Virus record (IMG/VR): IMGVR_UViG_3300031555_010707
Strand: one strand, 5' to 3'
Source of the DNA: a virus
Lineage: Duplodnaviria; Heunggongvirae; Uroviricota; Caudoviricetes
Length of the DNA: 16,199 nucleotides
Both the position numbers and the translations under genes were made by a program. Below the pieces are notes generated by a model that was not told where the DNA came from, did not search any database, and saw only the letters and a list, made by a program, of their open reading frames with translations. Position 1 is the stretch's first letter. Each line of letters starts with the position of its first letter. Positions 179 to 14,647 of this stretch are shown in pieces.

Positions 179-622
179 TTATTTTTTAAGGCTATTCAGT
201 ATGACTTCGTGAACTGACACATAGTACATTCCGGGCTTGTAATCAGCGTATGGCACTTTTCTTTTCTGGTGGTAGATTTTTACATTGCTGCCATCATCAA
301 TGGTGTACCAGTGATACTTGACATTTGAATACCTGGGATTATTTATCCTATATTCTTGCCCAGGTGCAACAACATATGCTTTTGCATTTGCTTGTTCCTT
401 GTTGAATTCAATAAACGCTCCGTAATCACCGACCACGATCCTAACAAAACCATTTGATACTGTAGTTCCTTTAGATGTCTGTAGTTCTTTGTCTGTGCTG
501 CCAAGCAAACAGGAAGGAATATTATTTTTGAAATATTCCCTGTACTTCTTTGACAAATCTTTCGGCAAAGGACTATATCCATATCTTTGTGCCAGTTTTG
601 CCTCAATTCCCAGAGTATTCAT
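179..622 (-). CDS. Hypothetical protein, 147 aa
   Basis: ORF 179..646 in the track; likely start ATG 622 (MNTLGIEAK) overlaps the MTase stop as ATGA, with GAGG upstream. Aromatic-rich globular sequence, no family recognised. Confidence 0.8.
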   Translation of the reverse strand: MNTLGIEAKLAQRYGYSPLPKDLSKKYREYFKNNIPSCLLGSTDKELQTSKGTTVSNGFVRIVVGDYGAFIEFNKEQANAKAYVVAPGQEYRINNPRYSNVKYHWYTIDDGSNVKIYHQKRKVPYADYKPGMYYVSVHEVILNSLKK

Positions 623-2166
623 GCTGCAACCTCTTCTGCGGTGCATATCTCAGGCAGATTCGCACGAACCAGTGCCGCAGGAATTGGAGGACACACTGCA
701 TTGCCACAACGCGCCACTTGTTCACCACGAGGATATGCTTTTCCGTCTGCATCCACATCAATTATGTAGTCGGATGGGAACCCCTGAGCATTAAAGAGCT
801 CACGAGGCGTCAGCATCCGCAGTCCAATGTCAACAATCTGGTAGTCTACACCCTTAACCGTGACAAGAGCCATTCTATCTTTTGCTGTGATGGTCGGTGC
901 AGGCTCACTTACATCGGAGCCGCTTGTACCAGAGCCATAATACTTTGTAAGGAAAGCCCTGACTTCTCCGAAATGACCGAATCCTGCGGTGATTGTATTG
1001 AGCGGTTCTTCAAGAGTCTGGCCATCACAATGATTATTGAACTGCGTAATAAAAGCCGATGCCAATCCATATCGATTTGAAGCATCGACCGTCATCAAAG
1101 GCTTGTCCACTGCTTGTCCGCGCACATTCTCGGTTTGCTCCGAGTGATATTGAATCAGGCTTGGAGCAATCATCATGTGATGACCACCTGTGGTAATAGT
1201 ATTGGCTGGCTCAGTAGGCGAAGAACCTGCGGCATTCTCATTATTACACATCATGACAGGAGTGACAATTCCCATGCCATGCTTTGCAGTAATGGTATCC
1301 AATGGCTCAGAAACATCTTGTCCCCTGAAACCCTCTCCGCTATGATTCACTTGCACAATAAACGGCGTTGGGTTATCCAATACGAATTTCTGGATTCCTT
1401 TGGCGATGCGCCGCATCGTATTTTCTGAAAGTGGCCTGACGGCACGAACGCCGTACTGTTCCATGATTTCCTCGCTTGAAGAAAAGATGGAAGGACACGG
1501 AAGGTTGAAGTCAAGGATTTCTGAAACAGGAACCCACGGCAACTTGCTTCCATTCTTCACTTCATCAGAGTCTGCCGGCGCATGAGTTGGCTCAGGCCAA
1601 ATAATTGGTTTGCCATCGCATCTGGCAATCAAAAAGAACCTTTTACGGATTGTTGGAGCGCCATAGTCGCAAGCTCGAAGAATCCTGTGTTCTACATGAT
1701 ACCCGAGGGTTTCAAGAGAAACAATGAATTCCTGGAAGGTTTCTCCCTTATGTTCTTTATCAGGACGATTCTCTTCATTGAGCGGCCCCCAATCCATAAA
1801 CTCCTCGACGTTTTCAAGCATGATAACGCGAGGGTGAACTTCCTGAGCCCATCTTGTCGCTACCCATGCAAGCCCTCGAATATTCTTATCTACTGGCTTA
1901 CCGCCCTTTGCCTTACTGTGGTGCTTGCAATCAGGACTGAACCAAGCCAATGCAACAGGCCTTCCCGCGCACGCTTCCACCGGATCAACCTGCCAGACAT
2001 CCTCACAATAATGCTTCGTCGTAGGATGATTTGCTCTGTGCATAGCAATGGCGGCAGGATCGTGATTGATGGCAATATCTACACTACGTCCAATTGCCAT
2101 TTCAATACCTGTACTGGCTCCTCCGCCTCCAGCGAAGTTGTCAACAACGATTTCCCTTTTCTTCAT
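619..2166 (-). CDS. DNA (cytosine-5)-methyltransferase, orphan phage type, 515 aa
   Basis: Motif I DNFAGGGG, motif IV variant SPDC, motif VI ENV, motif VIII PTIRKRFF, motif IX RMLTPRE, motif X GNAVCPP; ATGA overlap with the upstream gene. No cognate endonuclease in the window. Confidence 0.95.
   Translation of the reverse strand: MKKREIVVDNFAGGGGASTGIEMAIGRSVDIAINHDPAAIAMHRANHPTTKHYCEDVWQVDPVEACAGRPVALAWFSPDCKHHSKAKGGKPVDKNIRGLAWVATRWAQEVHPRVIMLENVEEFMDWGPLNEENRPDKEHKGETFQEFIVSLETLGYHVEHRILRACDYGAPTIRKRFFLIARCDGKPIIWPEPTHAPADSDEVKNGSKLPWVPVSEILDFNLPCPSIFSSSEEIMEQYGVRAVRPLSENTMRRIAKGIQKFVLDNPTPFIVQVNHSGEGFRGQDVSEPLDTITAKHGMGIVTPVMMCNNENAAGSSPTEPANTITTGGHHMMIAPSLIQYHSEQTENVRGQAVDKPLMTVDASNRYGLASAFITQFNNHCDGQTLEEPLNTITAGFGHFGEVRAFLTKYYGSGTSGSDVSEPAPTITAKDRMALVTVKGVDYQIVDIGLRMLTPRELFNAQGFPSDYIIDVDADGKAYPRGEQVARCGNAVCPPIPAALVRANLPEICTAEEVAA
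859..1365 (-). repeat. Five tandem 32-36 aa repeats in the MTase variable (target recognition) region
   Basis: aa ~268-436: GQDVSEPLDTITAK, GSSPTEPANTITTG, GQAVDKPLMTVDAS, GQTLEEPLNTITAG, GSDVSEPAPTITAK. Confidence 0.75.
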
Positions 2167-3275
2167 GATAATCCCTCTTGCTGGTATTTCATATCAAAAT
2201 ATCTGGATGCCAATTCAGGCATCTCTTTTTCAAAAGCGCGTAGTCGCTTCATGGACGCGCATTCCTTCTTATATCGCTCCTGGTCTTTATGAACAAATTC
2301 CCGGAAGCTCTTTTTCTTAAAAAAAGACGGCTGATTGCACCATCTGGCAATCACCGTATACATTCCGCTATATGGACTTTCCTCGTATCGTGCGAATCTC
2401 ATTATGTATGGCAAGCATTGATATTTCATCAGAAGTTCAATTCGCTTCCACAAATCCCGCATGTCCTGTTTCCAGAAATCAGTATCCCATTTGCCTTGTC
2501 TATCATAAGCACAGAATACATAAAACTTAGGAATCCGGCTTGTATGTCTACGCAACAACTGTAGTTTTTTCTCTACTATGTCGTAGTCCTCGATGTTATC
2601 GAATGCAAAAATATAGTCTCCATCATACCGACTTGTAAAAAGGAGTTCGCATTTTTCGTCGTTGAGTAACCTTTCATCAAGCCCTTGCTTAAACTGAAAA
2701 GGTTTTCCCGTGGCCTGCAGTTGCAGGAGCAACGTTTTCCAATCCTTGCACCCAAGGAAATTATCGTCAAGAAGACATATCTTTGGACGTGAAGGATCAA
2801 CAAATTCTTCAAGCGAACTATGAACATCCACTTTATCATAATTCCTGTTTACGCAAAAAGGACATTTTCTGAAGCATCCGCGAGTGATAAATCCTATCGA
2901 ATAATCCGTATAGTATCGATAGTCATGAGGGTTATCCCCAGCAGCTATTCTTCTTGTTACCCATTCATCATACAGGTGGTAATCTGGAAATGCGTGTTCA
3001 ATTTCAGAAGGCAGAGGACGGGCTTTATCATAGTAAAACCCGGTTCCTCCGCACTGAATATGAGGATGATTCAATACATGCGCCGGAACTTCCGTATCCG
3101 AAAATACTTTTGATATGTACACGCGATCATAATCCAAGACGCTATCGTAATCAGTCAGCAGTTGAACATAATCGCCACGAACTTTATGATAGGAACTTAG
3201 CTTCATACATGCCAAATTCGGAAACATATGCCTGAAACGCCCAATTAAATCAGCGTCTGCGATTCCGATTTTCAT
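2163..3275 (-). CDS. Radical SAM protein, 370 aa
   Basis: CxxxCxxC motif GCFRKCPFC, downstream LLDDNFL and QGLDERL; N-terminal PNLACMKLSSYHK...GGTG domain. Start ATG 3275 (MKIGIAD) overlaps the folD stop as ATGA. Confidence 0.85.
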   Translation of the reverse strand: MKIGIADADLIGRFRHMFPNLACMKLSSYHKVRGDYVQLLTDYDSVLDYDRVYISKVFSDTEVPAHVLNHPHIQCGGTGFYYDKARPLPSEIEHAFPDYHLYDEWVTRRIAAGDNPHDYRYYTDYSIGFITRGCFRKCPFCVNRNYDKVDVHSSLEEFVDPSRPKICLLDDNFLGCKDWKTLLLQLQATGKPFQFKQGLDERLLNDEKCELLFTSRYDGDYIFAFDNIEDYDIVEKKLQLLRRHTSRIPKFYVFCAYDRQGKWDTDFWKQDMRDLWKRIELLMKYQCLPYIMRFARYEESPYSGMYTVIARWCNQPSFFKKKSFREFVHKDQERYKKECASMKRLRAFEKEMPELASRYFDMKYQQEGLS

Positions 3276-4156
3276 TCGGAAGATTTCCATGAAGACGCTT
3301 CATAAACGCTCCATTCAACTTGAGCAAGCTCGACAACATTGCGAACCAGATTTGCAACAGTAAGCACTCCGATTCCACCGGGGACGGTTGTGATAGCTCC
3401 AGCAACTTTCTCAACTTCATCAAATGCTACATCACCCACAACCTTTCCATTGTCCAGGCGGTTGATGCCTACATCGATAACTGTTGCTCCCGGCTTAACC
3501 ATATCTGCGGTTACAAAGCCCGCCTTACCAACTGCACTTACAAGGATGTCAGCCTGTCTTGTAATGTCGGCTAAGTTCTTGGTGCGTGAATGGCAAACAG
3601 TTACAGTGCAATCCCTTGAAAGAAGATTTAGAGCCGTTGGCTTACCAACAATAGAAGAACGACCGATGATAACAACATGCTCGCCGCTGAGCGAACATTT
3701 GCCGTATGCGCTGACAAGAGCATCCTCAATACCACGAGCGGTGCAAGGTACTGGGTAGAAAGGTTCACCAAGCATCAGCCAGCCCTGAGAACTTGCGGTT
3801 ATGCCGTCCACATCCTTATCAGGATGAATGTATTGAGGACAGTCCTTCAAATGTTCAGGTAGCGGACACTGAACCATTACGGCATGAACAGAGGAATTTG
3901 CATTCAAATCGAGAATATGCTTTCTGAGCTCCGCTCTGGAAATCGTAGCCGGAAAATGTTGATGCAGAAATTGTATTCCGCATTGCTCGCACGCCTTTTG
4001 CTTATTGCGAATGTAGATATTGCTGGCAGGATCATCACCTACCTGAATAACGACAATAGTTGGAATACAACCATGAGAACGAAGGACTGAGGCGGTAATG
4101 CGTGCTTCCTCTTTGATAGTAGACGCAATTGCCTTGCAGTCAATGATGTTAGCCAT
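3272..4156 (-). CDS. folD: Bifunctional methylenetetrahydrofolate dehydrogenase/cyclohydrolase, 294 aa
   Basis: QVGDDPASNIYIRNK (YxxxK), QCPLP, KDVDG, PCTARG, GRSSIVGKP, VTVCHSRT, VIDVGIN, VPGGIG; TGATG overlap with dUTPase. Confidence 0.95.
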   Translation of the reverse strand: MANIIDCKAIASTIKEEARITASVLRSHGCIPTIVVIQVGDDPASNIYIRNKQKACEQCGIQFLHQHFPATISRAELRKHILDLNANSSVHAVMVQCPLPEHLKDCPQYIHPDKDVDGITASSQGWLMLGEPFYPVPCTARGIEDALVSAYGKCSLSGEHVVIIGRSSIVGKPTALNLLSRDCTVTVCHSRTKNLADITRQADILVSAVGKAGFVTADMVKPGATVIDVGINRLDNGKVVGDVAFDEVEKVAGAITTVPGGIGVLTVANLVRNVVELAQVEWSVYEASSWKSSE

Positions 4157-4584
4157 CACTTCACCCCCGTAGAACCAAATCCTCCGCGATCCACATCTTC
4201 CATGTGCTCAACGGTTTTGAAGCTAACAGCATCCATCTTCTTGACAATTCTGAACTGGCAAATGCGGTCGCCTTCCTCAATGACGGTATCGCGCATTGCG
4301 AGCGCAGGGAAACGCCAGATGTCATTCTCACCGCAGTAAGAGTTATCGATGACGCCCATGCTGTTGGTCTGGAGAACACCCCACTTCTTGAAAGTAGAAC
4401 TGCGCGGCACAACATGCGCCTCATAGCCTTCGGGGAGCTTCATGGAGATGCCCAGAGAGATGAGTTTGAAATCTCCCGCCATCATTGAAACAGTTTCCGC
4501 AGCGCGAAGGTCAATCCAGTCGCCATTCTCGATGGCAGTTACCTTTTCCAGATTCTTGTTATGATACTTGATTTTGATTGTCAT
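4156..4584 (-). CDS. dut: Trimeric dUTPase, 142 aa
   Basis: Motifs [31 protein letters not shown]; SD GGAGG upstream of ATG 4584; ATGA overlap. Confidence 0.95.
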
Positions 4585-4853
4585 GAATGAGCCTCCAGTT
4601 TGATACACATATTCTCCCACTTCTTATAAGCATCGAGGTACACTTCATTCTTATCGCCGTTGAAAGTGATCTCGTAATACATACCGTCAGCAATTCTGGT
4701 GCTGAGAAGCGCCTTATTGTTTTGCAGAGTCTTGCAAGACCAGACGATAAAAATATCGCTGACAGTGATTCTGGGATCAGTGGCATCCCTGTGTGTGTTA
4801 TAATAATCCTCTACCAGCCGAAAGCAGAGGTCATGAAAATCCTTACTGCCCAT
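4581..4853 (-). CDS. Phage hypothetical protein, DUF6275-like, 90 aa
   Basis: [16 protein letters not shown]...[26 protein letters not shown] resembles DUF6275 proteins (recognised from memory, no search run); strong SD AAGGAGG before ATG 4853. Confidence 0.75.
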
Positions 4854-4866
4854 TGATGGTTCCTCC

Positions 4867-5499
4867 TTAAGATTCACTGTGACGAGAAATCCATGAAGAC
4901 GTATGAGGATTCCATACAGCAGTGTCCCCATACGGGTATTCTCGTCTCAATTCATAGGTGTGCTGAGGTTCAGCCTTTTGCTTTTCCTCAAAAATGATAA
5001 GAGCCCTTTCTTCATTGGAAAAGGCTGCTTCAAAACCGCGATGCTTGCTTCTAATAACAAACTGAGGTTTGTTCATTGCCGTTAGTTCTGAGCGAAGTCC
5101 CATCAGAATGACACCGAGATGGTTTTCTCCCTTCTTCTTTCGCGTATCAACGCCCCAATATGTATCACCCCATGTATTGCCTTCGATCAATTCTGCGTCG
5201 CCGGTAGCAACAAGTTTCTTGGCCAGGTGTACATTCTGGACAAATTTTGCCCGGACAATTTCCTCCATGATTCTGAGCTTGACTTGTTCCCAGTCAGGGC
5301 GGAGTTTAACAAGCTGACCATGATGCTTTGCCTCTGAGGCAGAATGTTCTTGGAAAGACAGCGCTTCCTCTGCAGAAAGACATTTCATAGCCTGATATGC
5401 CGCCTCAGAGTTTTTGAATGTCATTCCATTGTAGTAAACTTTGCAGTCATAGAAGTTGCTGAGGAATCCATATTCCCCGCGAAAACTATCGATAGTCAT
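4867..5499 (-). CDS. NADAR (YbiA-like) family protein with ~70 aa C-terminal extra domain, 210 aa
   Basis: FLSNFY, SEAAYQAMK, LRPDWEQVK...M...AKF, TGDAELIEGNTWGDTYWG, GENHLGVILM; SD GGAGG before ATG 5499. Confidence 0.9.
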   Translation of the reverse strand: MTIDSFRGEYGFLSNFYDCKVYYNGMTFKNSEAAYQAMKCLSAEEALSFQEHSASEAKHHGQLVKLRPDWEQVKLRIMEEIVRAKFVQNVHLAKKLVATGDAELIEGNTWGDTYWGVDTRKKKGENHLGVILMGLRSELTAMNKPQFVIRSKHRGFEAAFSNEERALIIFEEKQKAEPQHTYELRREYPYGDTAVWNPHTSSWISRHSES

Positions 5500-5680
5500 T
5501 CTGACGCCTCCAAGTTGAGTTTTTTGCTTTTGTAAACATGGTGGTTGGTGCATGATAAAGCCTGTCGTCATCAGTCCTTATCATCGTCTGCTGGGCACAT
5601 GCAGTAGGATAATACTGTTTTACCACTACGCCTTTTACCCCAGTAGTGCAAACTACTCTATCTCCGATATGAATATCCAT
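5486..5680 (-). CDS. Small hypothetical protein, 64 aa, possible SH3/KOW-like barrel
   Basis: Track ORF 5486..5686; SD GAGGTG fits ATG 5680 (MDIHIGDRVVCTTGVKGVVVK). Confidence 0.7.
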   Translation of the reverse strand: MDIHIGDRVVCTTGVKGVVVKQYYPTACAQQTMIRTDDDRLYHAPTTMFTKAKNSTWRRQNDYR

Positions 5681-5851: not shown

Positions 5852-6361
5852 TCATAGCCTTGTCCATCGATATATTCTCACAATCGGAGAATCCTGGAGA
5901 TTAACGCAAAGCAGGACATCTCCTCTTGAGTGCATTGTGCCATGAAGCCCAATGAGAGAATCTCCGAAATCAATACAATCAACAATTTCTACGAGTTCAA
6001 GAATTGTGCGGCTGTCATACTCTGAAGAAATGTATGCCCAGTCTCCTAATGCAACCGAACCCCAATCAACTTCGGTATTTGCAACAATCCTGCCGCCATT
6101 GAATAATCCATAGAAACAACAGGCATTTCCATCGTGGAAGCGCCAAAGCTCTGTTTCGATGCCGGAATTGGGAATAGATAATGTTCCATAATAGATTGCA
6201 TCTTCGCTCATCGGAGCCATGCTCATAATCACGTCGTTATCGCTGCTGCCATTTGTCATTGCAACGGCACCAAGCACTAAAAGAATAGCAACAACGGCAA
6301 CAACGATGCCTTCGATTATGATTCTTCTACTGCTGATAACATGCTCTTCCATTGGTATCAT
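5852..6361 (-). CDS. Membrane-anchored protein, possible degenerate sortase-like fold, ~169 aa
   Basis: N-terminal TM IIIEGIVVAVVAILLVLGAVAM; GTLSIPNSGIETEL, LGDWAYI and DVLLCV...RIYRW echo the sortase strand pattern; ATGA overlap at 6358-6361 (alternative ATG 6352). The CDS is solid; the fold call is weak. Confidence 0.7.
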   Translation of the reverse strand: MIPMEEHVISSRRIIIEGIVVAVVAILLVLGAVAMTNGSSDNDVIMSMAPMSEDAIYYGTLSIPNSGIETELWRFHDGNACCFYGLFNGGRIVANTEVDWGSVALGDWAYISSEYDSRTILELVEIVDCIDFGDSLIGLHGTMHSRGDVLLCVNLQDSPIVRIYRWTRL

Positions 6362-7035
6362 ACTGCCTCCTTGTATGTATTTAGCATACTCCACCTAAAC
6401 CTTCGGTCGCACGGAACTAACCCTTGTTCTTCAAGGACAAATCGCAGATCGTAATCATGCACCGTATAGCCGCGAGGGTTAAATGATACAGGAGAATCTG
6501 AATCCCATTTCAGCAAAATTCCCCAAAGATCAGGATAATTTCTGCGAAGCAGTCTCAGTTGCTCTATGCTCTGATTATGACAAAACCAGCAGCCTCCGCG
6601 TGTAGCAGTCGTATAGATAGGCGAAAGCAAATCATTGTCTTCGCACCACTTACGGCAATCTGCTTCAGTCCAGCCAAGGGCGGCCAGAGGAGAAACTTTT
6701 GTCTTGCCGTCCAGCCGAGCCAACCTCTCAGGTTCATCGGCGGCTATGCCTAAATAGCTTACGACAATATTTTTATCCGCCCCTTGCCGCTTGGGGCTAT
6801 TCAAAAAGTCGATAGTGCCGCCATTTTCAGTCGGTCGTTGCACCAAGCACCCCGTATCATCGGGAACCCGTATATTTGATCCTTGCGAGTTCCCGATGTG
6901 CGAGCTTTGTAGAACACGCTCTCGTAAGTTAATCTTGCTTCCGTATTTGAGCTTCTTGCACCATGCTCCTCGCACCATAGGGAAGCCTCGGATTGAGCCG
7001 ATGAACTTACCTGATGTGAGCGTTTGATAGAACAT
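6358..7035 (-). CDS. PAPS-reductase/DndC-like protein, C-terminal reading frame (cassette 1 in frame plus core C-terminal domain)
   Basis: YLGIAADEPER, SPLAALGWTEADC, PIY, RGGCWFC (Fe-S-type CxxC). The frame is open back into the (AG)11 tract, so it is most likely the continuation of 6801..7298 rather than an independent gene. Confidence 0.8.
   Translation of the reverse strand: MFYQTLTSGKFIGSIRGFPMVRGAWCKKLKYGSKINLRERVLQSSHIGNSQGSNIRVPDDTGCLVQRPTENGGTIDFLNSPKRQGADKNIVVSYLGIAADEPERLARLDGKTKVSPLAALGWTEADCRKWCEDNDLLSPIYTTATRGGCWFCHNQSIEQLRLLRRNYPDLWGILLKWDSDSPVSFNPRGYTVHDYDLRFVLEEQGLVPCDRRFRWSMLNTYKEAV
6779..6822 (-). promoter_or_regulatory. Putative -1 recoding/slippage signal (GGCGG, 10 nt, TTTTT, 5 nt, GCCCC/GGGGC hairpin)
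   Basis: mRNA GGCGG CACUAUCGAC UUUUU GAAUA GCCCC AAGCGGCAA GGGGC; a -1 shift or +1 T here joins cassette 2 to the C-terminal frame. Function is inferred. Confidence 0.35.
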
Positions 7036-7298
7036 GGACTCGTAGCTCTCTCTCTCTCTCTCTCTCTGCCTTCGGCAGCATAGTGTTCAACCTCAATGCC
7101 CCAACGTCTTTTGATGATTTCGTCGGCTTTTGCCTTGAATTCGACCATCGGAGGTAAATCAGCCGGAATGGTGTCGGTTGCCCATACTTCTGCATGGATA
7201 ATCCGATCCAGCGGCCAACCAAGTTGTTCTATTGCACCGAGACAGGCAAGGCTGTCCTTGCCGTATGAGAGAGACAGGATATGCTCCGTCCTATCCAT
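6801..7298 (-). CDS. PAPS-reductase/DndC-like protein, N-terminal reading frame (PP-loop plus cassette 2 in frame), stops at 6801
   Basis: PP-loop LSLSYGKDS; reads RERERER through the (AG)11 tract, then LTYESVFY...GFPMIRGAWCNDRLK, then TGA. Confidence 0.8.
   Translation of the reverse strand: MDRTEHILSLSYGKDSLACLGAIEQLGWPLDRIIHAEVWATDTIPADLPPMVEFKAKADEIIKRRWGIEVEHYAAEGRERERERATSPCSIKRSHQVSSSAQSEASLWCEEHGARSSNTEARLTYESVFYKARTSGTRKDQIYGFPMIRGAWCNDRLKMAALSTF
6809..7044 (-). repeat. Diverged tandem duplication, 118-nt period, two peptide cassettes in different frames
   Basis: Cassette 1 starts with TAC at 7044 (YESMFYQTLTSGKFIGSIRGFPMVRGAWCKKLK); cassette 2 starts with TAC at 6926 (YESVFYKARTSGTRKDQIYGFPMIRGAWCNDRLK). 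TGG codons at 6963 and 6845, also 118 nt apart. Confidence 0.92.
7046..7067 (-). repeat. Intragenic dinucleotide microsatellite (AG)11
   Basis: Plus strand (CT)11 at 7046-7067; the only long simple sequence repeat seen in the window. Confidence 0.97.
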
Positions 7299-7301
7299 AT
7301 C

Positions 7302-7688
7302 TCAGATTTCCTTTATTTCAATCAGATCGCTGAATCGTTCTTTGATTGCTTCATTGAATTGTACTATGACGTTTTGCTCAACCCATTCGTAGACATACTG
7401 GTACGCCAAAGCCTTTCTGCGATGATTCTTATATTCACGCGAACGCAATCCACGCTTTGCTACTCTGGTCATTGGGAATCCCAATCTGCGCTTGACATTG
7501 TTAGGCATCAGAAAAAGAAGCTCCTGCTCGGAGCATTTCCTTAATAAAGAGATTCCGAATGGATACTTGAGGAAAAATTTGCAAATCTTTGCTTTGTGCC
7601 CATAAGCAAGTTGATATAACAGGTCTGGATGAATAATTGTATTATTGCAAGAGAAGGTAGCTGTACTGCACAACTTTATGCTTTTCAT
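7302..7688 (-). CDS. Hypothetical basic protein, 128 aa
   Basis: Track ORF 7302..7721; start ATG 7688 overlaps the upstream stop as ATGA. No family recognised. Confidence 0.75.
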   Translation of the reverse strand: MKSIKLCSTATFSCNNTIIHPDLLYQLAYGHKAKICKFFLKYPFGISLLRKCSEQELLFLMPNNVKRRLGFPMTRVAKRGLRSREYKNHRRKALAYQYVYEWVEQNVIVQFNEAIKERFSDLIEIKEI

Positions 7689-7909
7689 CGCAAGATCCAC
7701 TCCTGCTTGCTGGTATCCCATTCGTAGGTCAATCCATCATAGCTGCGGCATTCGAGGAACAGCTCGCCATACATGCGAAGGTTCTTTGGATCGGAAATAA
7801 AGGCCAACGCCTCTGCTTCGTTTCGGAAGGTTTTCACCTTGCTGTACGAAGAATGACCGTTAGTGACATCGTAGCTATCCTCACGGAGCACTACATACTT
7901 CGATTTCAT
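7685..7909 (-). CDS. Hypothetical protein, 74 aa, paralogous to the NADAR C-terminal extension
   Basis: SD AGGAG before ATG 7909 (MKSKYVVL); gapless match of FxNExxAL...G.T..W.{6}WIxR to aa 160-206 of the NADAR protein. Confidence 0.8.
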   Translation of the reverse strand: MKSKYVVLREDSYDVTNGHSSYSKVKTFRNEAEALAFISDPKNLRMYGELFLECRSYDGLTYEWDTSKQEWILR

Positions 7910-7947: not shown

Positions 7948-8451
7948 TCAAGGTTGATAAAGCACGATTTTTCCAGCTTTTTGACTTTCTTGAATATCGA
8001 TGATCCGCTGATTGCGGCTTCCGCGATAACTCAGCGTAATATCTCTCTGATCTAAGATAAACGGCCCGTCAACGAGCACATCACACATGACCAGAAGCTC
8101 GCGCATCGAAGGATCTGCGATGATTTCTTCGTAAGTAAAGCCGCTATATACCCACACCGTAGATGCAGGCGACAGCTCTTTCAGTTCTTTGATGAACGGG
8201 ATGATAGAATCTGCTGAATACATCGGATCTCCTCCGCTTAATGTGACGCCCGAAACAAAAGGCGTCTCTCTGACGTATTCTGCAATCTGTTCCTGAATCT
8301 CAGAACCAAATGATTTGCCGGTTTTGAAATCGTGAGACTCCGGGTTGTGACATCCTTTGCAATGATGATTACATCCGCTGAAGAAAATCACAACCCGAAC
8401 GCCATCGCCATCAACGATGGATTCAAAGTTGATGCCGACGATATTTGCCAT
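7948..8451 (-). CDS. nrdG: Anaerobic ribonucleotide reductase activating protein
   Basis: ESIVDGDGVR, FSGCNHHCKGCHN (CxxxCxxC), LSGGDP, DVLVDGPF, GSRNQRII; TAATG-coupled to nrdD. Confidence 0.97.
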   Translation of the reverse strand: MANIVGINFESIVDGDGVRVVIFFSGCNHHCKGCHNPESHDFKTGKSFGSEIQEQIAEYVRETPFVSGVTLSGGDPMYSADSIIPFIKELKELSPASTVWVYSGFTYEEIIADPSMRELLVMCDVLVDGPFILDQRDITLSYRGSRNQRIIDIQESQKAGKIVLYQP

Positions 8452-10697
8452 TAGGCACCGCCTTGCGCGAAGGAGGAATAGTTGCTGTGCTTGACTCTAT
8501 CCAAGCATTCTGCAATCTTGCCCTGATTGAATCTCCTGAAATCGCTGGTCAGATAGCCGGTAACACGGCGCAGACGCTGGATTTCGGTGTTGCCACAACG
8601 CGGACAGTTATATTCGATTTCTCCTTGATAGCCACATTTCAGGCAGGTATCAATCGGGAAATTGAAGGCAAGGTATGGAATATCCAGAGACATTGCGTAA
8701 TCAACGATGCTTGCAATTGCCTTCTGGTTCTGCATAACAGCAGATTCCAATTCGATATATGTAATACAGCCAGCAGTAGCGTACTTGCAGAAGGGCGCTT
8801 CAGTTTCCAGTTTCTTATTGATAGAAACCTTCTGCCATACAGGCACATGATGGCTGTTGGTGATATACTCCCTGTCAGTGATATGCGGAAGCACACCAAA
8901 TTCATCTCTGAGAGCTTTCGCATAGGTACGGCACAAGGATTCTGCCGGGGTTGCATAGCAACCGAAGTTCAGATTGTGGCGCTCAGAAGCATCCTTTGCC
9001 CACTGATAAATGTGCGCAACGACAGACAGAGCAAAATCGTGAACCTTCGGATCTTCAGAGTGATCTTTTCCGAACAGAGCCTGACACATTTCAGCAATGC
9101 CGATATAGCCCATTGCGAGCGTTCCGTGCTTCATAGATTCATAGACGCCCTTGAAATTGGCTTCCTTGTAATCCGCAACCGTACCATTCTGATACATGAA
9201 TGGAGCGCACTGAACGGGCTGGGCGCAGATATGATAGAAGCGGTCAACCAGAGAGGTTTCGGTTAACGCGAGTACCTCATCCAGCTCCTGCCAGAATCCT
9301 GCAATATCCGCAACTTTACGTTCGCCCAAGCAGATGCCATGACGAATACCGATCTTGGGAAGATTCATGGTAGTCGGGCAAACATTGCCGCGACCGATCT
9401 TGGAATATCCAAGGCCGTGACGATCTCTGCCCATCATGGTGCGGCATCCCATCGTTGCGCATTCCGTGTCAGGATCACCGGGAGTTTCTTCATTCTGTGA
9501 GAAATCGCAGTTGACGATATTAGGGTAGATACGATGAGACAAAGACTTCTCAGCAAGCTGACGCAGATCATAGTTCGGCGTACCAGGCTTATCGTTAACG
9601 CCTTTCTTGTACTTGAAGATAGAGATCGGGAAAATTGAGGTCAGATTATACTTGCCGATACCTGCGAGGCTTGCCTCCAGCATCCAGCGCGTAACGAGTC
9701 TGCCTTCAGGAGAAGTGTCAGTGCCAAAGTTGATAGAAGAAAAAGGAACCTGACTGCCGGCGCGTGATTCAAGGGTGTTCAGATTATGATACAGTCCCTG
9801 AGCGGCCTGCCGTCCTTCCTTCTCCAGCATATCCATTGCATACTGCTTTGCCTTGGGGAAAGCGTTGAAGTTCGGATGTTCGATGCTTGCCATCGTCTTA
9901 ATACAGGTATCGTACCAATCATCGGGGAGACGAATTGCCTGCTTCTCTTCCTCAGTGACCAGATACTTGACGCCTTCCCTAAAGTGCTTGTAGAAACTCT
10001 TCTTCACATAGGGCGCAAGATCATAATCGATATGGGCGGAAGCAACACCTCCGAACTGAACCTGTGACTGACACTGGAAAATAACAGCGACAAGCTGACA
10101 GGCAGTAGAGAAACTATTCGCCGCACGGACATCACCGTTTCGGGTGCTGAACCCCTGACCCAGTAGTAGCTTCAGATCAGCAAACAGGCAGTTGTGGCTG
10201 CCGATGTCGTATTCAGAAAGGTCATGAATGTAGATTCTTGATTCACGGTGCGCCCGAGAGGTTTCAGGTCGCATAAAGGCATTCAGAGAAATGTTCTTGT
10301 GCAGGATATTTGCGCTTTCAAACTTCTTGCCGCTGAAACTGATTTCATCAATGTTGGCATTGGAGTTCTGGACATTGGTTCCGCAGATTACATTCTCAAT
10401 CTGCCGATTGATCTTGCTATTGCGTTCTCGATCCTGACTGCGCTTTTCACGGTATGTAATGTATTCCTTGGCCGTCTGCTTGAGCGAAGATTTCATCAAC
10501 TTCATCTCAACCATATCCTGTATCTGCTCAACTTCCAGAATATCTGCGGGGAAATTTGCAATCTCATCTGCAATTTTCTCAACAATTTCTGGGCTGTTTT
10601 GACCAGCACGCTTCATAGCATGACCAATTGCTTCGATGATTTTGTGCTTGTTGAATGGCTCAACCCTGCCATCCCTTTTCTTGATTTCAGTTACCAC
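8451..10697 (-). CDS. nrdD: Class III anaerobic ribonucleoside-triphosphate reductase, 748 aa
   Basis: N-terminal ATP cone (KKRDGRVEPFNKHKI), HNCL, MGCRT, Zn site CLKC/CPRC, glycyl-radical motif RRVTGYL; SD AGGAGG with GTG start. No intron or intein evident. Confidence 0.98.
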   Translation of the reverse strand: MVTEIKKRDGRVEPFNKHKIIEAIGHAMKRAGQNSPEIVEKIADEIANFPADILEVEQIQDMVEMKLMKSSLKQTAKEYITYREKRSQDRERNSKINRQIENVICGTNVQNSNANIDEISFSGKKFESANILHKNISLNAFMRPETSRAHRESRIYIHDLSEYDIGSHNCLFADLKLLLGQGFSTRNGDVRAANSFSTACQLVAVIFQCQSQVQFGGVASAHIDYDLAPYVKKSFYKHFREGVKYLVTEEEKQAIRLPDDWYDTCIKTMASIEHPNFNAFPKAKQYAMDMLEKEGRQAAQGLYHNLNTLESRAGSQVPFSSINFGTDTSPEGRLVTRWMLEASLAGIGKYNLTSIFPISIFKYKKGVNDKPGTPNYDLRQLAEKSLSHRIYPNIVNCDFSQNEETPGDPDTECATMGCRTMMGRDRHGLGYSKIGRGNVCPTTMNLPKIGIRHGICLGERKVADIAGFWQELDEVLALTETSLVDRFYHICAQPVQCAPFMYQNGTVADYKEANFKGVYESMKHGTLAMGYIGIAEMCQALFGKDHSEDPKVHDFALSVVAHIYQWAKDASERHNLNFGCYATPAESLCRTYAKALRDEFGVLPHITDREYITNSHHVPVWQKVSINKKLETEAPFCKYATAGCITYIELESAVMQNQKAIASIVDYAMSLDIPYLAFNFPIDTCLKCGYQGEIEYNCPRCGNTEIQRLRRVTGYLTSDFRRFNQGKIAECLDRVKHSNYSSFAQGGA

Positions 10698-10710
10698 TTT
10701 GAGCCTCCTG

Positions 10711-11004
10711 TTATGTATTGATATAAGCGCCTTGCCCCGACAAGAATAGATTTAATCCGCCGATGGCATTCTGCATAGCGCTGATACGATTTTCCATAGA
10801 GGCAATTTGTGTTTTCACATGTTCCTCATTACTGGAAATATAATATCCCTTTTGATCCGAACAGACGGGAATACCAGAGCTTCGCATCTGGTTGATATAC
10901 CGTCTGACCTCAGCGCCTTTGATTCCAAGTCGCTGAGAAATTCCTGAAGCCGTGATTCTTTGGTGAATGTCACGCGGAATCAAATTAAGAACCATGTCAT
11001 ACAT
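10711..11004 (-). CDS. Winged helix-turn-helix DNA-binding protein, 97 aa
   Basis: ITASGISQRLGIKGAEVRRYINQMRSSGIPVCS...KGYYI pattern; SD GGGAGG upstream. Confidence 0.75.
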   Translation of the reverse strand: MYDMVLNLIPRDIHQRITASGISQRLGIKGAEVRRYINQMRSSGIPVCSDQKGYYISSNEEHVKTQIASMENRISAMQNAIGGLNLFLSGQGAYINT

Positions 11005-11620
11005 GAGCTACTTCCTCCCTGTGTATTGGGGCACTTGCAAGTTGCTCATAGGCTTCATCGTAATGCTGCGTGATTTTTGAGATTCGTTCATAGACTTCTT
11101 TCCATGTATGCACGCGAATCCATTTACTCTCATGATTGGCTCGATTATGTGGAGCATCCATCAGGAACGGCTGAGAAATATCGCTATTCCAATTCATGAG
11201 GTTATGCGGCGCATCATCGATGATGAAATCACCACGCACCATGCTCTTGTTATGAGCAACGATTACATCCGTCCATTTGAGAAATGGGAAATGCCGAAAT
11301 AACGCAAGCTCCATCTTGTCCTGTAAGCCTTTGTAGTGCGACGCAGTGCAAATGTAAACATGATGCCCATCGTCAATAAGTCTTTTTACATATTCAACCG
11401 CGCCTGGCTTTGGCATTACTGTTTTCCAGAATTCTCTCAAAGACAAAGGAGCAAAAATTTCTTCTTTTGCAAGAGTTGGAAAAGCAATGCTCATATCCCA
11501 TTCTGTAACAGATTCAGGATCGACATTAAGTCCATGAGACGTATTGAGCCACTGTACCCAAGCGGGCACAAGCGACTCAAGCGTATCGTCCATGTCGATC
11601 AGAATATCGAAACTCCTCAT
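10997..11620 (-). CDS. HAD-superfamily 5'(3')-deoxyribonucleotidase (NT5C-like), 207 aa
   Basis: ILIDMDDTL (DxDxT), PKPGAVE, ICTAS, K...GDFIIDDAPHN; ATGA overlap. Confidence 0.9.
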   Translation of the reverse strand: MRSFDILIDMDDTLESLVPAWVQWLNTSHGLNVDPESVTEWDMSIAFPTLAKEEIFAPLSLREFWKTVMPKPGAVEYVKRLIDDGHHVYICTASHYKGLQDKMELALFRHFPFLKWTDVIVAHNKSMVRGDFIIDDAPHNLMNWNSDISQPFLMDAPHNRANHESKWIRVHTWKEVYERISKITQHYDEAYEQLASAPIHREEVAHV

Positions 11621-12933
11621 GCGGCAGGCTCCTGATCCTCATGACTCCAGTTGCTGACCATATTGATGACGCACTGATTCAGATCATCAAGGTTGCCATT
11701 GTTTACGATAGTCTCGTCGGGAACCACGTCTTTTAGAGCTGTCTCAGAAGGATGGTTGCGCTGTTCCTCGGTAAGGTCGTTTTCGACAGGACGAGTGATG
11801 TGTATATGCTGGACATCAAATCCAGCCTTCTTCAATTCACTGATCTCGTTCGGGAATCTTACATCGGGAATAAGCACATAATCCCATTCATTGGGAAACA
11901 GCTTCAAAACTTTAATGATAAAGGCAACCCAGAAGTCAGGTTCCTGCTTACGAATTACGTCAGTACCAACATATTGCAGAACATGACGACCCTTCTCATC
12001 TTTCTGACCATCCCAACCGAAGAGGGACTTACACATGAATTTGAGAAGATCAGCATTATGAATCGTGAGAACACGATGGTTCCACTCTTCTTCCAGTTCT
12101 CTCTTCATCATGTCAGCCGTTGTATCCTTACCGGCTCTTGCCTGACCAGAGATGCAAACTACCTTTGCGTGCTGCTTCTGAACAGGCTCCTTGACGAAGA
12201 TCAATTCGTCTACAAGGGGCAGCGTTTTGACCCATGCCATGAAATGAACCAAGGTCGGATCATCTTTGCCAGACCATTCATTCTGCTTATGGCCTTTGCG
12301 CTGACGAGTCATAGCAAAAATATTCTCGTATGTCAGCGTAACGGTACGCATCTGAAGCCAGGATTCAGGCAGCCAGCGAATCAGCTCCTTCCAATACTTC
12401 TTGGCGAGCTTCTTGTCCGTATCTTTATAACGCAGATAGAGCTGACGAAGCTGTTCCAGGTCATCGATAAAGTTATCGACTCTCATGCTGAGACTTGCTT
12501 CGTCAATCATATCAAGACCTTTGCAGAAGTCATCCGTTTCAAAGCAATCAATCGTGATGGGAGTCGTATGAATGGTGTGCATTGTTGAGGTGGAATTGGC
12601 AGTAGTGCCAACCTTATATGTATCGAATTCCTTCCACCAATAAAGAGGTGCCGTAATATCAACAGACACAAAAATCTGGCGGAGGAACTTACGATGCTCA
12701 CTGCCCCCCTTAATGAGAGTTTGTGCGAGCTTCAAATCCTTGGGGCCGATATATGGAATACAGGGCTTACCAAAGCCGTCGAAATAGCTGCAATGTTCGC
12801 AATGCTGATTTGGGTCATCGGAGTGACAATCATCCGAGAAGTTACTGTCACTGAGATGCCAGCTGTTCTTCGGATTTCTCATACCTCGAAAGGCATGTTC
12901 AAAACCCCATACTTGGGTTCTTTCAAACTTCAT
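11617..12933 (-). CDS. Fusion: divergent ThyX-like (flavin-dependent thymidylate synthase-like) domain plus deoxynucleoside monophosphate kinase, 438 aa
   Basis: aa 1-246: HRKFLRQIFVSVDITAPLYWWKEFDTYKVGTTANSTS, LPESWLQMRTVTLTYENI, QRKGHKQNEW. aa ~255-438: P-loop SGQARAGKDT, RHVLQYVGTD, IPDVRFPNE, HPSE, IVNNG. Confidence 0.8.
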   Translation of the reverse strand: MKFERTQVWGFEHAFRGMRNPKNSWHLSDSNFSDDCHSDDPNQHCEHCSYFDGFGKPCIPYIGPKDLKLAQTLIKGGSEHRKFLRQIFVSVDITAPLYWWKEFDTYKVGTTANSTSTMHTIHTTPITIDCFETDDFCKGLDMIDEASLSMRVDNFIDDLEQLRQLYLRYKDTDKKLAKKYWKELIRWLPESWLQMRTVTLTYENIFAMTRQRKGHKQNEWSGKDDPTLVHFMAWVKTLPLVDELIFVKEPVQKQHAKVVCISGQARAGKDTTADMMKRELEEEWNHRVLTIHNADLLKFMCKSLFGWDGQKDEKGRHVLQYVGTDVIRKQEPDFWVAFIIKVLKLFPNEWDYVLIPDVRFPNEISELKKAGFDVQHIHITRPVENDLTEEQRNHPSETALKDVVPDETIVNNGNLDDLNQCVINMVSNWSHEDQEPAA

Positions 12934-12961
12934 AAGTCACCATCTTTCTGAAAAGGGCTTG

Positions 12962-12990
12962 AAAAAGCAGCGCGATATTTCACGCGCTGC
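12962..12990 (-). terminator. Rho-independent terminator
   Basis: Minus strand GCAGCGCG-tgaaatat-CGCGCTGC (8-bp GC stem) followed by TTTTT; begins 6 nt after the stop of the 54-aa ORF. Confidence 0.8.
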
Positions 12991-12996
12991 AATAAC

Positions 12997-13161
12997 TCAA
13001 TTCTTCCGGTTCTTTCTGCTGACAACAAGATCTGTGAAGTTCTTAATTGTCAGAATAAGCCAGTATGCAACGATAAATGCCCACATGTTTTGCTGCTGCA
13101 AAAGGCCAGCGAACACAATCGCTGCATCGATACCGAGAAGGAAGATAAGAAACTGGCTCAC
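12997..13161 (-). CDS. Small two-TM membrane protein, 54 aa (not in ORF track)
   Basis: GTG start overlapping the upstream TGA (GTGA), SD GGGTG; MSQFLIFLLGIDAAIVFAGLLQQQNMWAFIVAYWLILTIKNFTDLVVSRKNRKN*. Confidence 0.75.
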   Translation of the reverse strand: MSQFLIFLLGIDAAIVFAGLLQQQNMWAFIVAYWLILTIKNFTDLVVSRKNRKN

Positions 13162-13385
13162 TTCTTATCACCCGTAATAGGCTGGCCATCGGCAAGCTTA
13201 GTGCAGATTTTGCAGAAAGCAATGACGTCTTCCAGTCTCTGTTCAACGGTTTTGCTTTCGTCGGTTGCCTTATCAAGAACAACCTTACACATAGCATATG
13301 CACCCTGCGCGACTCCTGCGGTATGTTGCTTTTGCAAGCCGCCCGTTACGACGCGCTTGAATACCTGATCGTTATGTTTTGCCAT
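13158..13385 (-). CDS. Hypothetical protein, 75 aa
   Basis: SD GGAGG before ATG 13385; coupled to the downstream ORF. Confidence 0.75.
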   Translation of the reverse strand: MAKHNDQVFKRVVTGGLQKQHTAGVAQGAYAMCKVVLDKATDESKTVEQRLEDVIAFCKICTKLADGQPITGDKK

Positions 13386-13414
13386 GAATACCTCCGCAGC
13401 CTTATGACTGCTTA

Positions 13415-13690
13415 TTATGTATTATCAAAGTCCTCTGCAAGAAGTTCTGTCTCACAGAGATCGACTTCTCCTCGGAGCTTGTATTCTCCCTTGTTCGGAG
13501 AAACTTTGCATCCGGGAATAAAGCTGTCCATCAGCTTATCGAAACAGTCAATGCAGATATGCGCTTCAAGATGTGTCAGGTCATACTTGGAACCGTAGCC
13601 AACATGATAGTCAAAGCCAAAGTCCTCCTGCTCGTCCAGTTCATCAAACACCTTTCCGCACACATTACAGACCAATTTTGCCTTAAGCAA
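13415..13690 (-). CDS. Small putative zinc-binding protein, 91 aa
   Basis: CNVC...CIDC pair; likely TTG start at 13690 with GAGG upstream (track start 13780 lies inside the phosphoesterase gene). Confidence 0.75.
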   Translation of the reverse strand: MLKAKLVCNVCGKVFDELDEQEDFGFDYHVGYGSKYDLTHLEAHICIDCFDKLMDSFIPGCKVSPNKGEYKLRGEVDLCETELLAEDFDNT

Positions 13691-14426
13691 TGGATTTCGC
13701 CTCACTTTCAGCCAATTTGGATTCCTGATCGTCAGGAGAAATCGCAATGATGTCCTCGAATAAAAACCGCATTTTATCAATTACCTTATCGGTATGATAG
13801 TGGCCGCAGTACCATTTGTGATAATGCGTATTGTCCTCTATATGATCGAGCCATTCTTCAGTGCTGGTATCCACTGTGCTCTGGTCGATGCCGGAGAGGA
13901 ACATTTCGGTTGGTATATATTTGAGGGGGCATGTGTGTGATAAAATCACATCAACATTGTGATTAAGGGAAGCAAGTTTCGCTTCCACTCTCGCCTTAGT
14001 TTCGTCATCAGGCTGTTCATCTGAGAACCACAGACGCCCGTTGCCAAGACGATAATACTTGTCTACGCTATAAGCACCGCCGCAAACAAGACATTTGTGA
14101 CCAGCAAAGTCATAGATCGAACCATCTTTGGCAAATATGATGTTCGGATAGCTCTTCTGCATGTAGGCCATATCTCCATGGAATTCCACGAGTTCATACC
14201 CGAGCTCCACGCTTGGTCTTCGTTCATGATTGCCGTGAACACAAAAAAGTGTAATAGGCAATTTTGAAAGGCTCTTTTTGAAGTAATCATCCCGGTAATC
14301 ACCAAGATAATTGATTCCTGCATCCCCAAGGATAATCATAACATCGTTTGTGGTTGTATGATGCTTTCTGCAGAACCACTGAATGCGAGAAAAATCCCTG
14401 TGAGTATCGCCTGTAATATAGATCAT
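13683..14426 (-). CDS. Calcineurin-like metallophosphoesterase, 247 aa
   Basis: Motifs GDTH, GD, GNHE, SHTCP, GHYH; SD AAGGGGG. Confidence 0.92.
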   Translation of the reverse strand: MIYITGDTHRDFSRIQWFCRKHHTTTNDVMIILGDAGINYLGDYRDDYFKKSLSKLPITLFCVHGNHERRPSVELGYELVEFHGDMAYMQKSYPNIIFAKDGSIYDFAGHKCLVCGGAYSVDKYYRLGNGRLWFSDEQPDDETKARVEAKLASLNHNVDVILSHTCPLKYIPTEMFLSGIDQSTVDTSTEEWLDHIEDNTHYHKWYCGHYHTDKVIDKMRFLFEDIIAISPDDQESKLAESEAKSIA

Positions 14427-14438
14427 CTGTCATCCCCC

Positions 14439-14639
14439 TTATTTCCGAGTGGAAGAGAGAACAATCACAGCGATGAGGAGCATAAAAAGAGAAATCCAAG
14501 TGGGAATCAAGACTGCCCACCACGACCAGCTGATAACGTCAAAGAATTTCAAAACTGCGAGAACAATCTGAAGTACCAGAAGCACATCTGTTCCGCCAGA
14601 ATCTTGACTTGTTTGATTCGTATTCAAGTTGCATACCAT
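14439..14639 (-). CDS. Small phage-type membrane protein, ~62-66 aa
   Basis: GG...LQIVLAVLKFFDVISWSWWAVLIPTWI pattern, two hydrophobic segments; start uncertain (ATG 14639 or TTG 14627). Confidence 0.75.
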   Translation of the reverse strand: MVCNLNTNQTSQDSGGTDVLLVLQIVLAVLKFFDVISWSWWAVLIPTWISLFMLLIAVIVLSSTRK

Positions 14640-14647
14640 CCTTTCAA

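Follow-up and report, generated by a model that had tools for sequence, protein, structure and literature searches.

A length-variable AG repeat as the probable selector of reading frame for tandem cassettes in a phage PP-loop enzyme gene

Organisation of the cassette gene

The window considered here is the whole of a 16,199-nucleotide (nt) stretch of DNA from a virus of the Caudoviricetes (IMG/VR record IMGVR_UViG_3300031555_010707), which belongs to an IMG/VR provirus fragment of 29.8 kb. Its minus strand carries a gene for a PP-loop enzyme resembling PAPS reductase (hereafter the cassette gene), in which an (AG)11 tract is followed by two diverged tandem cassettes that lie in different reading frames (Table 1). 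We consider it probable (about 0.72) that this gene is a contingency locus, in which the length of a simple sequence repeat (SSR) sets the frame in which the cassettes are read.

Table 1. Features of the cassette gene and of its junctions; coordinates are positions in the window.
Feature	Position	Strand	Basis
Cassette gene, PP-loop, PAPS-reductase-like; ATG at 7298	7298-6358	minus	three-frame translation and profile hidden Markov models (HMMs)
N-terminal PP-loop domain (N-domain), frame 'N', codons 1-77, SLSYGKDS	7068..7298	minus	N-domain HMM, 146 bits
(AG)11 on the coding strand, (CT)11 on the plus strand; sets the entry frame of the cassette array	7046..7067	minus	TRF
Cassette 1, type A, YESMFY..IRGFPMVRGAWCKKLKY (GFPMVRGAWC); shares the C-domain frame	6927..7044	minus	translation and HMM
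Cassette 2, type B, YESVFY..IYGFPMIRGAWCNDRLKMAAL (GFPMIRGAWC); shares the N-domain frame at n = 11	6804..6926	minus	translation and HMM
T5 tract (6807-6803) and TGA of the cassette-2 frame (6803-6801)	6801..6807	minus	sequence; alignment with L080
GC hairpin, arms 6797-6793 and 6783-6779, 9-nt loop, 5 nt past T5	6779..6797	minus	
C-terminal domain (C-domain), YLGIAADEP .. GGCWFCHNQ .. FRW, stop codon included	6358..6800	minus	C-domain HMM, 212 bits

This layout had been proposed in an initial annotation made from the letters of the sequence, and each of its elements was found again at the place assigned to it. The HMMs for cassettes and domains were built from single-cassette homologues. Loci compared with the window gene at the DNA level are designated by L-numbers and compared proteins by P-numbers; every sequence compared was taken from a metagenome assembly or a metagenome-assembled genome and is, that is to say, a consensus.

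The two cassettes share 62% nt identity and recur with a period of 118 nt (1 mod 3). With n = 11, n being the number of AG units, the gene is divided into open reading frames (ORFs) of 165 amino acids (aa; 6801-7298) and 225 aa (6358-7035). A -1 shift, or one additional T, at the T5 tract would join cassette 2 to the C-domain. The initial annotation had placed the frame break at this tract, and alignment of the window with L080, a locus in which cassette 2 and the C-domain stand in one frame, puts the break at the same T run. The (CT)11 tract is the sole SSR of its class across the 16-kb window.

Scanning of the gene for promoters and terminators gave nothing above shuffled sequences, and an Rfam scan of positions 6300-7350 returned a chance match to a long non-coding RNA alone (E = 0.7). 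Comparison with GenBank phages by blastn gave a single irrelevant match of 131 nt. No further copy of the window gene was found in IMG/VR by an exact-flank search, from which the window's own record was possibly excluded.

Repeat-length variation in the window's lineage

Eight near-identical genes, recovered from independent assemblies and 93.7-99.4% identical to the window gene at the nt level, were found to carry n = 10, 13, 14 and 17, and each of them shows a single alignment gap relative to the window gene. With the lengths of 9, 12, 15 and 16 units that were deduced from protein lengths, the observed range is n = 9-17, and every frame class is represented.

The corresponding products fall into three series. 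Intact proteins were found for n = 10 (a 312-aa ORF with cassette 1; L129/P0127), for n = 13 (a 314-aa ORF, P0131, in which the two frames of the window are joined at the repeat; its gene, L128, is 99.4% identical to that of the window) and for n = 16 (a 316-aa ORF, n being inferred from the L130 product). These proteins of 312, 314 and 316 aa, which belong to a 90%-identity cluster of the C-frame ORF, differ by RE units before SYESMFY. For n = 11, 14 and 17, products of 165, 167 and 169 aa comprise the N-domain and cassette 2, and all of them end in ..LKMAALSTF (90% cluster). For n = 9, 12 and 15, early stops give forms of 95, 97 and 99 aa that end in ..LR(V/I)HVLSNAHIR (P0367, P0364 and P0291). 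Counted approximately by contig, about six are in the ON state with cassette 1, about 22 in the cassette-2 frame and about 13 in the early-stop state. The initial annotation had taken the tract to be a switch driven by slippage and had calculated the consequences for each frame; near-identical phages do carry n = 9 to 17, and the frame arithmetic proved correct, with natural products that match it for n = 10, 13 and 16 as well as for n = 9, 12 and 15.

In another lineage, two loci from two metagenomes (L002 and L003) are identical across 3,722 nt save for (AG)8 in the one and (AG)7 in the other. Owing to this difference of one unit, the frame of L003 is closed early by a stop codon, whereas that of L002, a locus truncated where its contig ends, stays open from the last part of the N-domain across cassette 1 and the C-domain.

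The SSR thus lies inside the coding region, differs in length between near-identical genomes and leaves the ORF either intact or interrupted, all of which is characteristic of contingency loci. Judged from the assembled sequences, the (AG)n tract is indeed a hypermutable switch, and cassette-1 ON/OFF switching is the part of the proposal that is displayed in the window's lineage itself.

Cassette arrays in homologous genes

Searches for homologues in IMG/VR, in JGI metagenomes and among the genomes of GTDB yielded about 60 distinct homologues with a single cassette, together with more than 20 loci that hold two to four cassettes in two or three frames. The phages and prophages concerned have gut Clostridia as hosts (Lachnospiraceae, Oscillospiraceae, Christensenellaceae and Ruminococcus); multi-cassette prophages have so far been met only in metagenome-assembled genomes, such as the one from Lachnospiraceae that contains L081. 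The initial annotation had suggested that homologues be searched for out-of-frame cassettes and an upstream SSR; cassettes of this kind, flanked by SSRs, do recur in the homologues, and the multi-cassette architecture is kept at 45-65% protein identity across many lineages. In two homology searches, the spacer between N- and C-domain measured 80-150 aa, instead of 40-70 aa, in 136 of 168 full-length proteins; the in-frame cassette of these 136 was early only in 72, late only in 21 and both early and late in 41. An enlarged spacer of this kind occurs in more than 100 protein clusters.

Each cassette type has a conserved position, in the order A-B-C-D; the motifs are IKGFP..WCKKLKY (type A), IYGFP..WC.S.LK.AA (type B), TGF..CTGELK (type C) and YGFPIS..GNWCT.LK..VF (type D). 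The junction between types A and B is common to many loci: the sequence that reads '(I/V)DLR.Y(I/V)L' in one frame reads 'LTYE.(I/M)FY' in the next. Since the same junction is met in so many loci, the out-of-frame arrangement must be old. The SSRs are (AG)6-14 or G6-13 tracts and occur at three sites, namely ahead of cassette A, where the N-domain ends, within cassette B (separating its YE..FY half from its GFP..WC half) and at the junction of array and C-domain. Repeats at the last site are (AG)6 in L005, (AG)7 in L093, which is the closest relative of the window gene (65% aa identity), and G7 in L126.

Alternative isoforms were found as intact ORFs in other lineages. L136 (G9 and G11) encodes N-domain, cassette A, linker, cassette C and C-domain, and L137 (G8 and G9) encodes N-domain, linker, the first half of cassette B, linker, cassette C and C-domain; the two are 91.5% identical at the nt level. 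L001 (G8/G8), about 85% identical to each, has no ORF that runs from N- to C-domain. A second pair is formed by L127, which with (GA)8 encodes the cassette-A isoform, and L126, which with (GA)12 and one extra base in the G7 run at the array/C-domain junction encodes the cassette-B isoform. Cassette B also stands in the C-domain frame in L080 and L078, and P0147 is another intact cassette-B isoform. Because both isoforms exist as intact ORFs elsewhere, selection of a cassette through the reading frame is a genuine trait of the family.

Several variants depart from this arrangement. Both cassettes are in frame with the N- and C-domains in L092 (594-1568), P0142 and P0144, and the second cassette of L092 has EC instead of WC. 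L083 (3149-3200), which is related to L005, has undergone a deletion that removed the (AG)n junction as well as the tail of cassette B; its N-domain is out of frame with cassette A without an SSR, and the gene looks like a decaying copy. At the 5' end of the L004 contig (1-160), a C5 DNA methyltransferase motif (FSGIGAF) runs into the N-domain end (..VEHICAT..) and (AG)7, and the rest of the N-domain is missing; the gene has been rearranged, or else the end of the contig is chimeric. Further long SSRs, (AC)8 and C9, occur in related phage contigs (L093, 2197; L076, 2409; L074, 5612 and 6468) and may be contingency loci.

Selection on domains, cassettes and reading frames

Variable sites in the window's lineage were assigned to first/second/third codon positions, which gave 2/0/17 for the N-domain, 1/0/5 for cassette 1 in its own frame and 1/5/20 for the C-domain. 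Across the family, differences in the conserved cassette blocks, again counted in their own frames, amounted to 89/80/161 for type B and 12/11/27 for type A. On these codon-position patterns, N-domain, cassette 1 and C-domain are under strong purifying selection in the window's lineage, and the cassettes are under purifying selection in their own frames at the level of the family.

The alternative frames were inspected for stop codons. Among 61 distinct single-cassette homologues the +1 frame of the segment is open in one and the +2 frame in four, the mean numbers of stops in single-cassette genes being 3.0 and 3.7, respectively, per approximately 51 codons. In two-cassette loci, two frames contain no stop anywhere in the array (about 310 nt), as opposed to three to nine stops in the remaining frame. 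Loci with cassettes in three frames (L044, L007, L076, L078 and L001) are almost free of stops in all frames. The in-frame tandem L092 serves as an internal control; its alternative frames are closed. As far as reading frames can be judged from the sequences, their openness is more than chance, because alternative frames are rarely open in single-cassette homologues while cassette-bearing frames stay free of stops.

These data bear on the explanation that the arrangement is an artefact of assembly or sequencing at low-complexity sites, or a decaying pseudogene with a chance duplication. The (AG)n tract and the homopolymers are classic sites of such errors, and the window copy does not contain a single continuous ORF. 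Independent assemblies agree, however, on all bases but the repeat number, and this number spans three classes with matching products; purifying selection on N-domain, cassette 1 and C-domain, conservation of the architecture among distant lineages and the open state of the frames in use all speak against decay. We therefore regard both artefact and decay as extremely improbable. Assembly error was rejected since L002/L003 and the near-identical genes differ in repeat number, and a pseudogene was rejected on the codon-position bias of variable sites in the window's lineage. A recent tandem duplication was likewise rejected, the copies being too diverged (62% identical) and undetected by a repeat search.

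Reading-frame choice and the fate of cassette 2

The favoured explanation is the contingency locus named at the outset. Polymerase slippage would alter the length of (AG)n behind the N-domain and thereby the frame in which the array is read. With n = 1 mod 3 (10, 13, 16), cassette 1 would be in frame, cassette 2 would be translated as an out-of-frame, disordered linker and the C-domain would again be in frame (ON, isoform 1). With n = 2 mod 3 (11, as in the window, 14, 17), cassette 1 would become the linker, cassette 2 would be in frame and translation would end at the TGA in T5; a full-length isoform 2 would need a second event at T5, which might be a change in length or a -1 ribosomal slip beside the hairpin. 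With n = 0 mod 3, an early stop would turn the gene OFF.

AlphaFold models of natural ORFs of isoform 1 (L005; predicted local distance difference test score, pLDDT, 82) and isoform 2 (P0055; pLDDT 83) show the same fold, and the out-of-frame cassette was modelled as a loop with pLDDT below 50 (residues 139-172 in L005 and 93-116 in P0055). The isoforms may differ in activity, target or vulnerability.

The toggle between two cassettes that the initial annotation had envisaged stands for the family, in which L136 and L137, and likewise L127 and L126, encode the alternatives intact. Continued use of cassette 2 in the window's lineage is conceivable but unproven, and several observations weigh against it or against the explanation as a whole. 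T5 is short for an SSR and is unchanged in nine of nine sequences (the window and the eight near-identical genes). A protein of this lineage composed of N-domain, out-of-frame linker, cassette 2 and C-domain was not found among the homologues, the best longer match being a relative with 68% identity. Variable sites of cassette 2, counted in its own frame in this lineage, number only ten and, distributed as 5/1/4, say little about constraint; they lack the third-position bias of the other segments. Several loci, moreover, have cassettes in reading frames that none of the known SSRs connects with the frame of the C-domain, so that a model confined to DNA-level changes must be incomplete.

The missing joint of cassette 2 and C-domain, the invariant T5 and the 5/1/4 sites mean that the locus may serve, in the window's lineage, for ON/OFF switching of isoform 1 only. 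Cassette 2 would then be a relic that is tolerated as a linker, and n = 2 mod 3 a second OFF state; the occurrence of all three repeat classes would be expected of neutral cycling through OFF states. Against such a plain ON/OFF locus, cassette 2 is intact and is a better match to the single-cassette homologues than cassette 1 (42.5 bits as opposed to 19.3 bits with the Kb HMM of these homologues). Its frame is open from the SSR to T5, its substitution rate of 0.079 per site is far under the third-position rate of the N-domain (17/77), most contigs have n = 2 mod 3, and relatives use type-B cassettes in intact ORFs. We hold plain ON/OFF switching to be a minority possibility for this lineage, although one to be taken seriously.

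The junction of cassette array and C-domain

A GC hairpin of 5-7 bp with compensatory changes was found at the array/C-domain junction of 18 multi-cassette loci, namely the window, L001, L003, L004, L007, L044, L064, L074, L076, L078-L081, L085, L087, L126, L127 and L130. Since MAFFT put the hairpin stems out of register, the arms were re-aligned by hand, and the covariation is a direct reading of the 18 sequences. Stem position 3 is paired as C-G, T-A or A-T, where a synonymous third position of a Gly codon faces the first position of a Pro, Ser or Thr codon; stem position 5 is paired as C-G or G-C. The stem was present in only one of 58 single-cassette genes as against 9-10 of 15 multi-cassette genes. 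It is missing where (AG)n occupies the junction (L005 and L093), in the deletion variant L083 and in the in-frame tandem L092. In 14 of the 18 loci the hairpin is preceded, at a distance of 4-7 nt, by a U4-5 tract. This tract reads CUUUUUG in the window and GUUUUC in most relatives, and the latter gives a Phe codon in all three frames.

These features admit a two-layer switch, in which the SSR would pick one of three frames, and with it one of up to four Cys-bearing active-site cassettes, and the conserved U tract and hairpin would reset ribosomes by -1/-2 slippage from any frame to that of the C-domain. The junction would then act as a programmed frameshift site, and the single upstream SSR would choose the cassette; at n = 11, tRNA-Phe would slip by -1 while UGA occupies the A site, and full-length isoform 2 would result. 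The place of the hairpin in the 18 loci with its compensatory changes, its near-absence from single-cassette genes, its absence exactly where (AG)n fills the junction and in the in-frame tandem, and the nearby U tract are all in keeping with such a frame reset. So is the predominance of n = 2 mod 3 in the window's lineage. Translational reset would also explain loci with cassettes in three frames (such as L044, L087, L007 and L076), because their SSRs lie only upstream; their frames are open up to the site.

The structure itself is less persuasive. Frameshift sites have a conserved covarying stem 5-9 nt downstream, and one is found here, but it is short (5-7 bp); that of the window is a GC stem of 5 bp with a fold z-score of -1.4, and Rfam offered no match. 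A canonical X XXY YYZ heptamer is absent from the window, where the incoming frame reads ACU UUU UGA, and so only a single tRNA-Phe re-pairing at -1 would be possible. Four of the hairpin loci lack the U tract. In-frame joins are fixed at the DNA level in L080 and L126, which would be unnecessary were the reset efficient, and the hairpin arms are C/G runs (up to G7 in L126) that could act at the DNA level instead. Frame reset at the junction is accordingly put forward tentatively, as a possibility with the odds against it. If it were true, each SSR state that enters a cassette frame would give a different full-length enzyme, and the n = 11 of the window would be an expressed isoform 2.

At n = 2 mod 3 the enzyme might, alternatively, be made in two parts that assemble, one of N-domain, linker and cassette 2 (165 aa) and the other of the C-domain (148 aa), started at TTG by translational coupling. 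The TGA of the cassette-2 frame overlaps a TTG in the C-domain frame (TTGA at 6804-6801), and gene callers repeatedly start a 148-aa C-domain ORF there (P0122, 12 contigs). This overlap is not conserved, however: in relatives the cassette-frame stops lie 0-30 nt past the U tract, and no consistent start codon is found. A split enzyme is thus considered improbable, and clearly more so than frame reset.

Enzyme family and gene context

The proposed contingency locus concerns an enzyme that profile searches place loosely. PHROG 424, annotated as 'PAPS reductase', is the one family that matches (1e-21 and 3e-9). Pfam, PF01507 included, gave no match at E <= 0.01 for the window ORFs or at E <= 1 for intact homologues; no NCBIfam family scored above its cut-off, only PRK13795 being reported, at 12-23 bits as compared with cut-offs of at least 456; and a PDB sequence search returned no match. 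In the atlas clusters, PF01507 is found on 21% of members. The best structural match by VIA-align was the PAPS reductase 7rge (Z 10.4, root-mean-square deviation 3.5, 161 residues), followed by CysD 1zun (Z 9.9), and TilS, GMP synthase, LarE and TtuA are within approximately 1-2 Z units of the best match. On the modelled structure, the fold is that of a generic PP-loop ATP pyrophosphatase, closest to PAPS reductase/CysD.

The SLSYGKDS PP-loop motif is invariant among homologues. Four Cys residues are invariant as well: that of the cassette WC, one in a C..WC motif and the CxxC of GGCWFC. An ECGLH-type motif with a catalytic Cys is absent from the C-terminus, which reads ..RFRWSMLNTYKEAV. The analogy with APS reductase and TtuA suggests that the enzyme is iron-sulfur (Fe-S) dependent and that its site is partly built by the cassette Cys. 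The cassette, which the initial annotation had described as an active-site-proximal loop, is not a peripheral loop but an essential core segment in the middle of the enzyme, of about 40 aa, that ends in one of the four invariant Cys residues. The DndC/SspD label (DNA phosphorothioation) of the initial annotation was not upheld: there is no significant Pfam or NCBIfam match, and no Dnd- or Ssp-like partners (dndA/iscS, dndB, dndD, dndE, sspA-C) were found in the PHROG annotation of the 19 window ORFs.

The cassette gene is flanked on the minus strand by ORFs at 5852-6394 (180 aa) and at 7302-7721 (139 aa); neither has a PHROG match, and the first of them shares 37 nt with the end of the cassette gene. 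The remainder of the window (619-5571 and 7948-16183), a module for nucleotide metabolism and DNA modification, encodes a DNA polymerase, a metallophosphoesterase, a dNMP kinase fusion, NrdD/NrdG, a dUTPase, FolD, a radical SAM protein and a DNA methyltransferase of 515 aa. The combination of FolD, radical SAM protein and methyltransferase may point to a modified base.

In L001, L093, L127 and L004, the cassette gene is immediately preceded by DNA methyltransferase genes. Many single-cassette homologues, moreover, share one fused ORF with a complete S-adenosylmethionine (SAM) synthetase with three MetK Pfam domains (L046-L058, L014, L038, L067, L101 and L103; for example, L046 at 2767-4641). 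Fusion to SAM synthetase points to a SAM-linked role of the PP-loop enzyme and, taken together with the adjacent DNA methyltransferases of relatives, makes a role in DNA modification or in counter-defence/anti-restriction plausible.

Three more G8 tracts were seen in upstream methyltransferase ORFs of L001 (456, 1627 and 2314; also L075 at 10521, 11692 and 12379). One methyltransferase of L001 appears to be split near the tract at 1627, the ORFs at 908-1822 and 1861-2688 corresponding to consecutive parts of PHROG 116. The L001 phage may also phase-vary its methyltransferases.

Relation to known systems

Bacterial SSR contingency loci with CT/AG and poly-G tracts are known from Neisseria, Haemophilus, Campylobacter and Helicobacter, and poly-G tracts in receptor-binding genes of Campylobacter phages are a further example from phages. 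Contingency loci have recently been reported for T2 agt and T4 rIIA (bioRxiv 10.1101/2025.10.21.683753). The cassette gene resembles all of these in that an intragenic repeat changes in length, presumably by slippage, which would shift the frame reversibly and give mixed populations, and T2 agt, a phage enzyme in a DNA-modification setting, is a functional analogue. The known loci, in contrast, are switched ON and OFF or truncated; here each downstream frame holds an alternative internal segment, the versions not in use are read as linker, and the shared C-terminal frame is regained, often by way of a second SSR.

Polymerase stuttering sites of RNA viruses (paramyxovirus P/V/W and ebolavirus GP/sGP/ssGP) are similar insofar as a slippery homopolymer picks among three overlapping frames, with a common N-terminus and alternative downstream modules. 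RNA editing of this kind, however, is co-transcriptional and non-heritable and provides alternative C-termini, whereas an inherited change in DNA swaps an internal segment here.

Restriction-modification genes change their specificity by hsdS shufflons, by intragenic invertons (bioRxiv 10.1101/2023.03.11.532203) or, in NgoAV HsdS, by poly-G truncation. These systems share with the cassette gene that one locus gives alternative isoforms of an enzyme related to DNA modification within a clonal population. They depend on a recombinase and inverted repeats, or on truncation, whereas the cassettes described here are direct tandem copies selected by frame. Neither a recombinase among the annotated ORFs of the window nor inverted repeats around the array were found, and inversion or a shufflon was rejected, since no inverted repeats flank the array.

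Diversity-generating retroelements (DGRs) are a phage mechanism that likewise diversifies a defined protein segment from repeated copies. The window differs from them in several respects. There is no reverse transcriptase among its annotated ORFs, the cassette mismatches involve all bases (A 14, T 12, C 11, G 8) and fall mainly on third codon positions, and each cassette type is conserved across lineages. A DGR was rejected for want of a reverse transcriptase and of adenine-specific mismatches.

As for the enzyme, PAPS reductase, CysD and APS reductase are alike in the N-terminal PP-loop motif, in the PHROG 424 match and as best structural matches. APS reductases also have a middle-segment Cys and a C-terminal CxxC, which in the cassette enzyme, too, may ligate an Fe-S cluster. 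The cassette gene differs from the PAPS reductase family in that a PF01507 match and an ECGLH-type motif are lacking.

The initial annotation had known of no described equivalent. A full-text literature search likewise found no description of a layout with frame-chosen internal cassettes, although absence from the literature searched is no proof. The slippage mechanism is classical; what is new is that the frame set by the SSR picks an internal module, that the other modules are read as linker and that the shared C-domain is regained.

Biological significance

Phase variation by SSRs is normally seen as ON/OFF switching or truncation. The family described here suggests that slippage can also choose among mutually exclusive internal modules in overlapping frames, the unused modules being tolerated as disordered linker, and that neither a recombinase nor a reverse transcriptase is needed. 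In present annotations, genes of this kind appear in pieces, as two or three hypothetical ORFs, a pitfall to be borne in mind. The family is also a natural model in which the tolerance of proteins to out-of-frame inserts can be studied, and the conserved hairpin makes the idea of a frame reset directly testable. That the layout is so widely distributed among the phages and prophages of gut Clostridia implies that a single segment of a PP-loop enzyme is under strong and fluctuating selection; the enzyme, which is met together with DNA methyltransferases and SAM synthetase, is plausibly part of an arms race over DNA modification and restriction.

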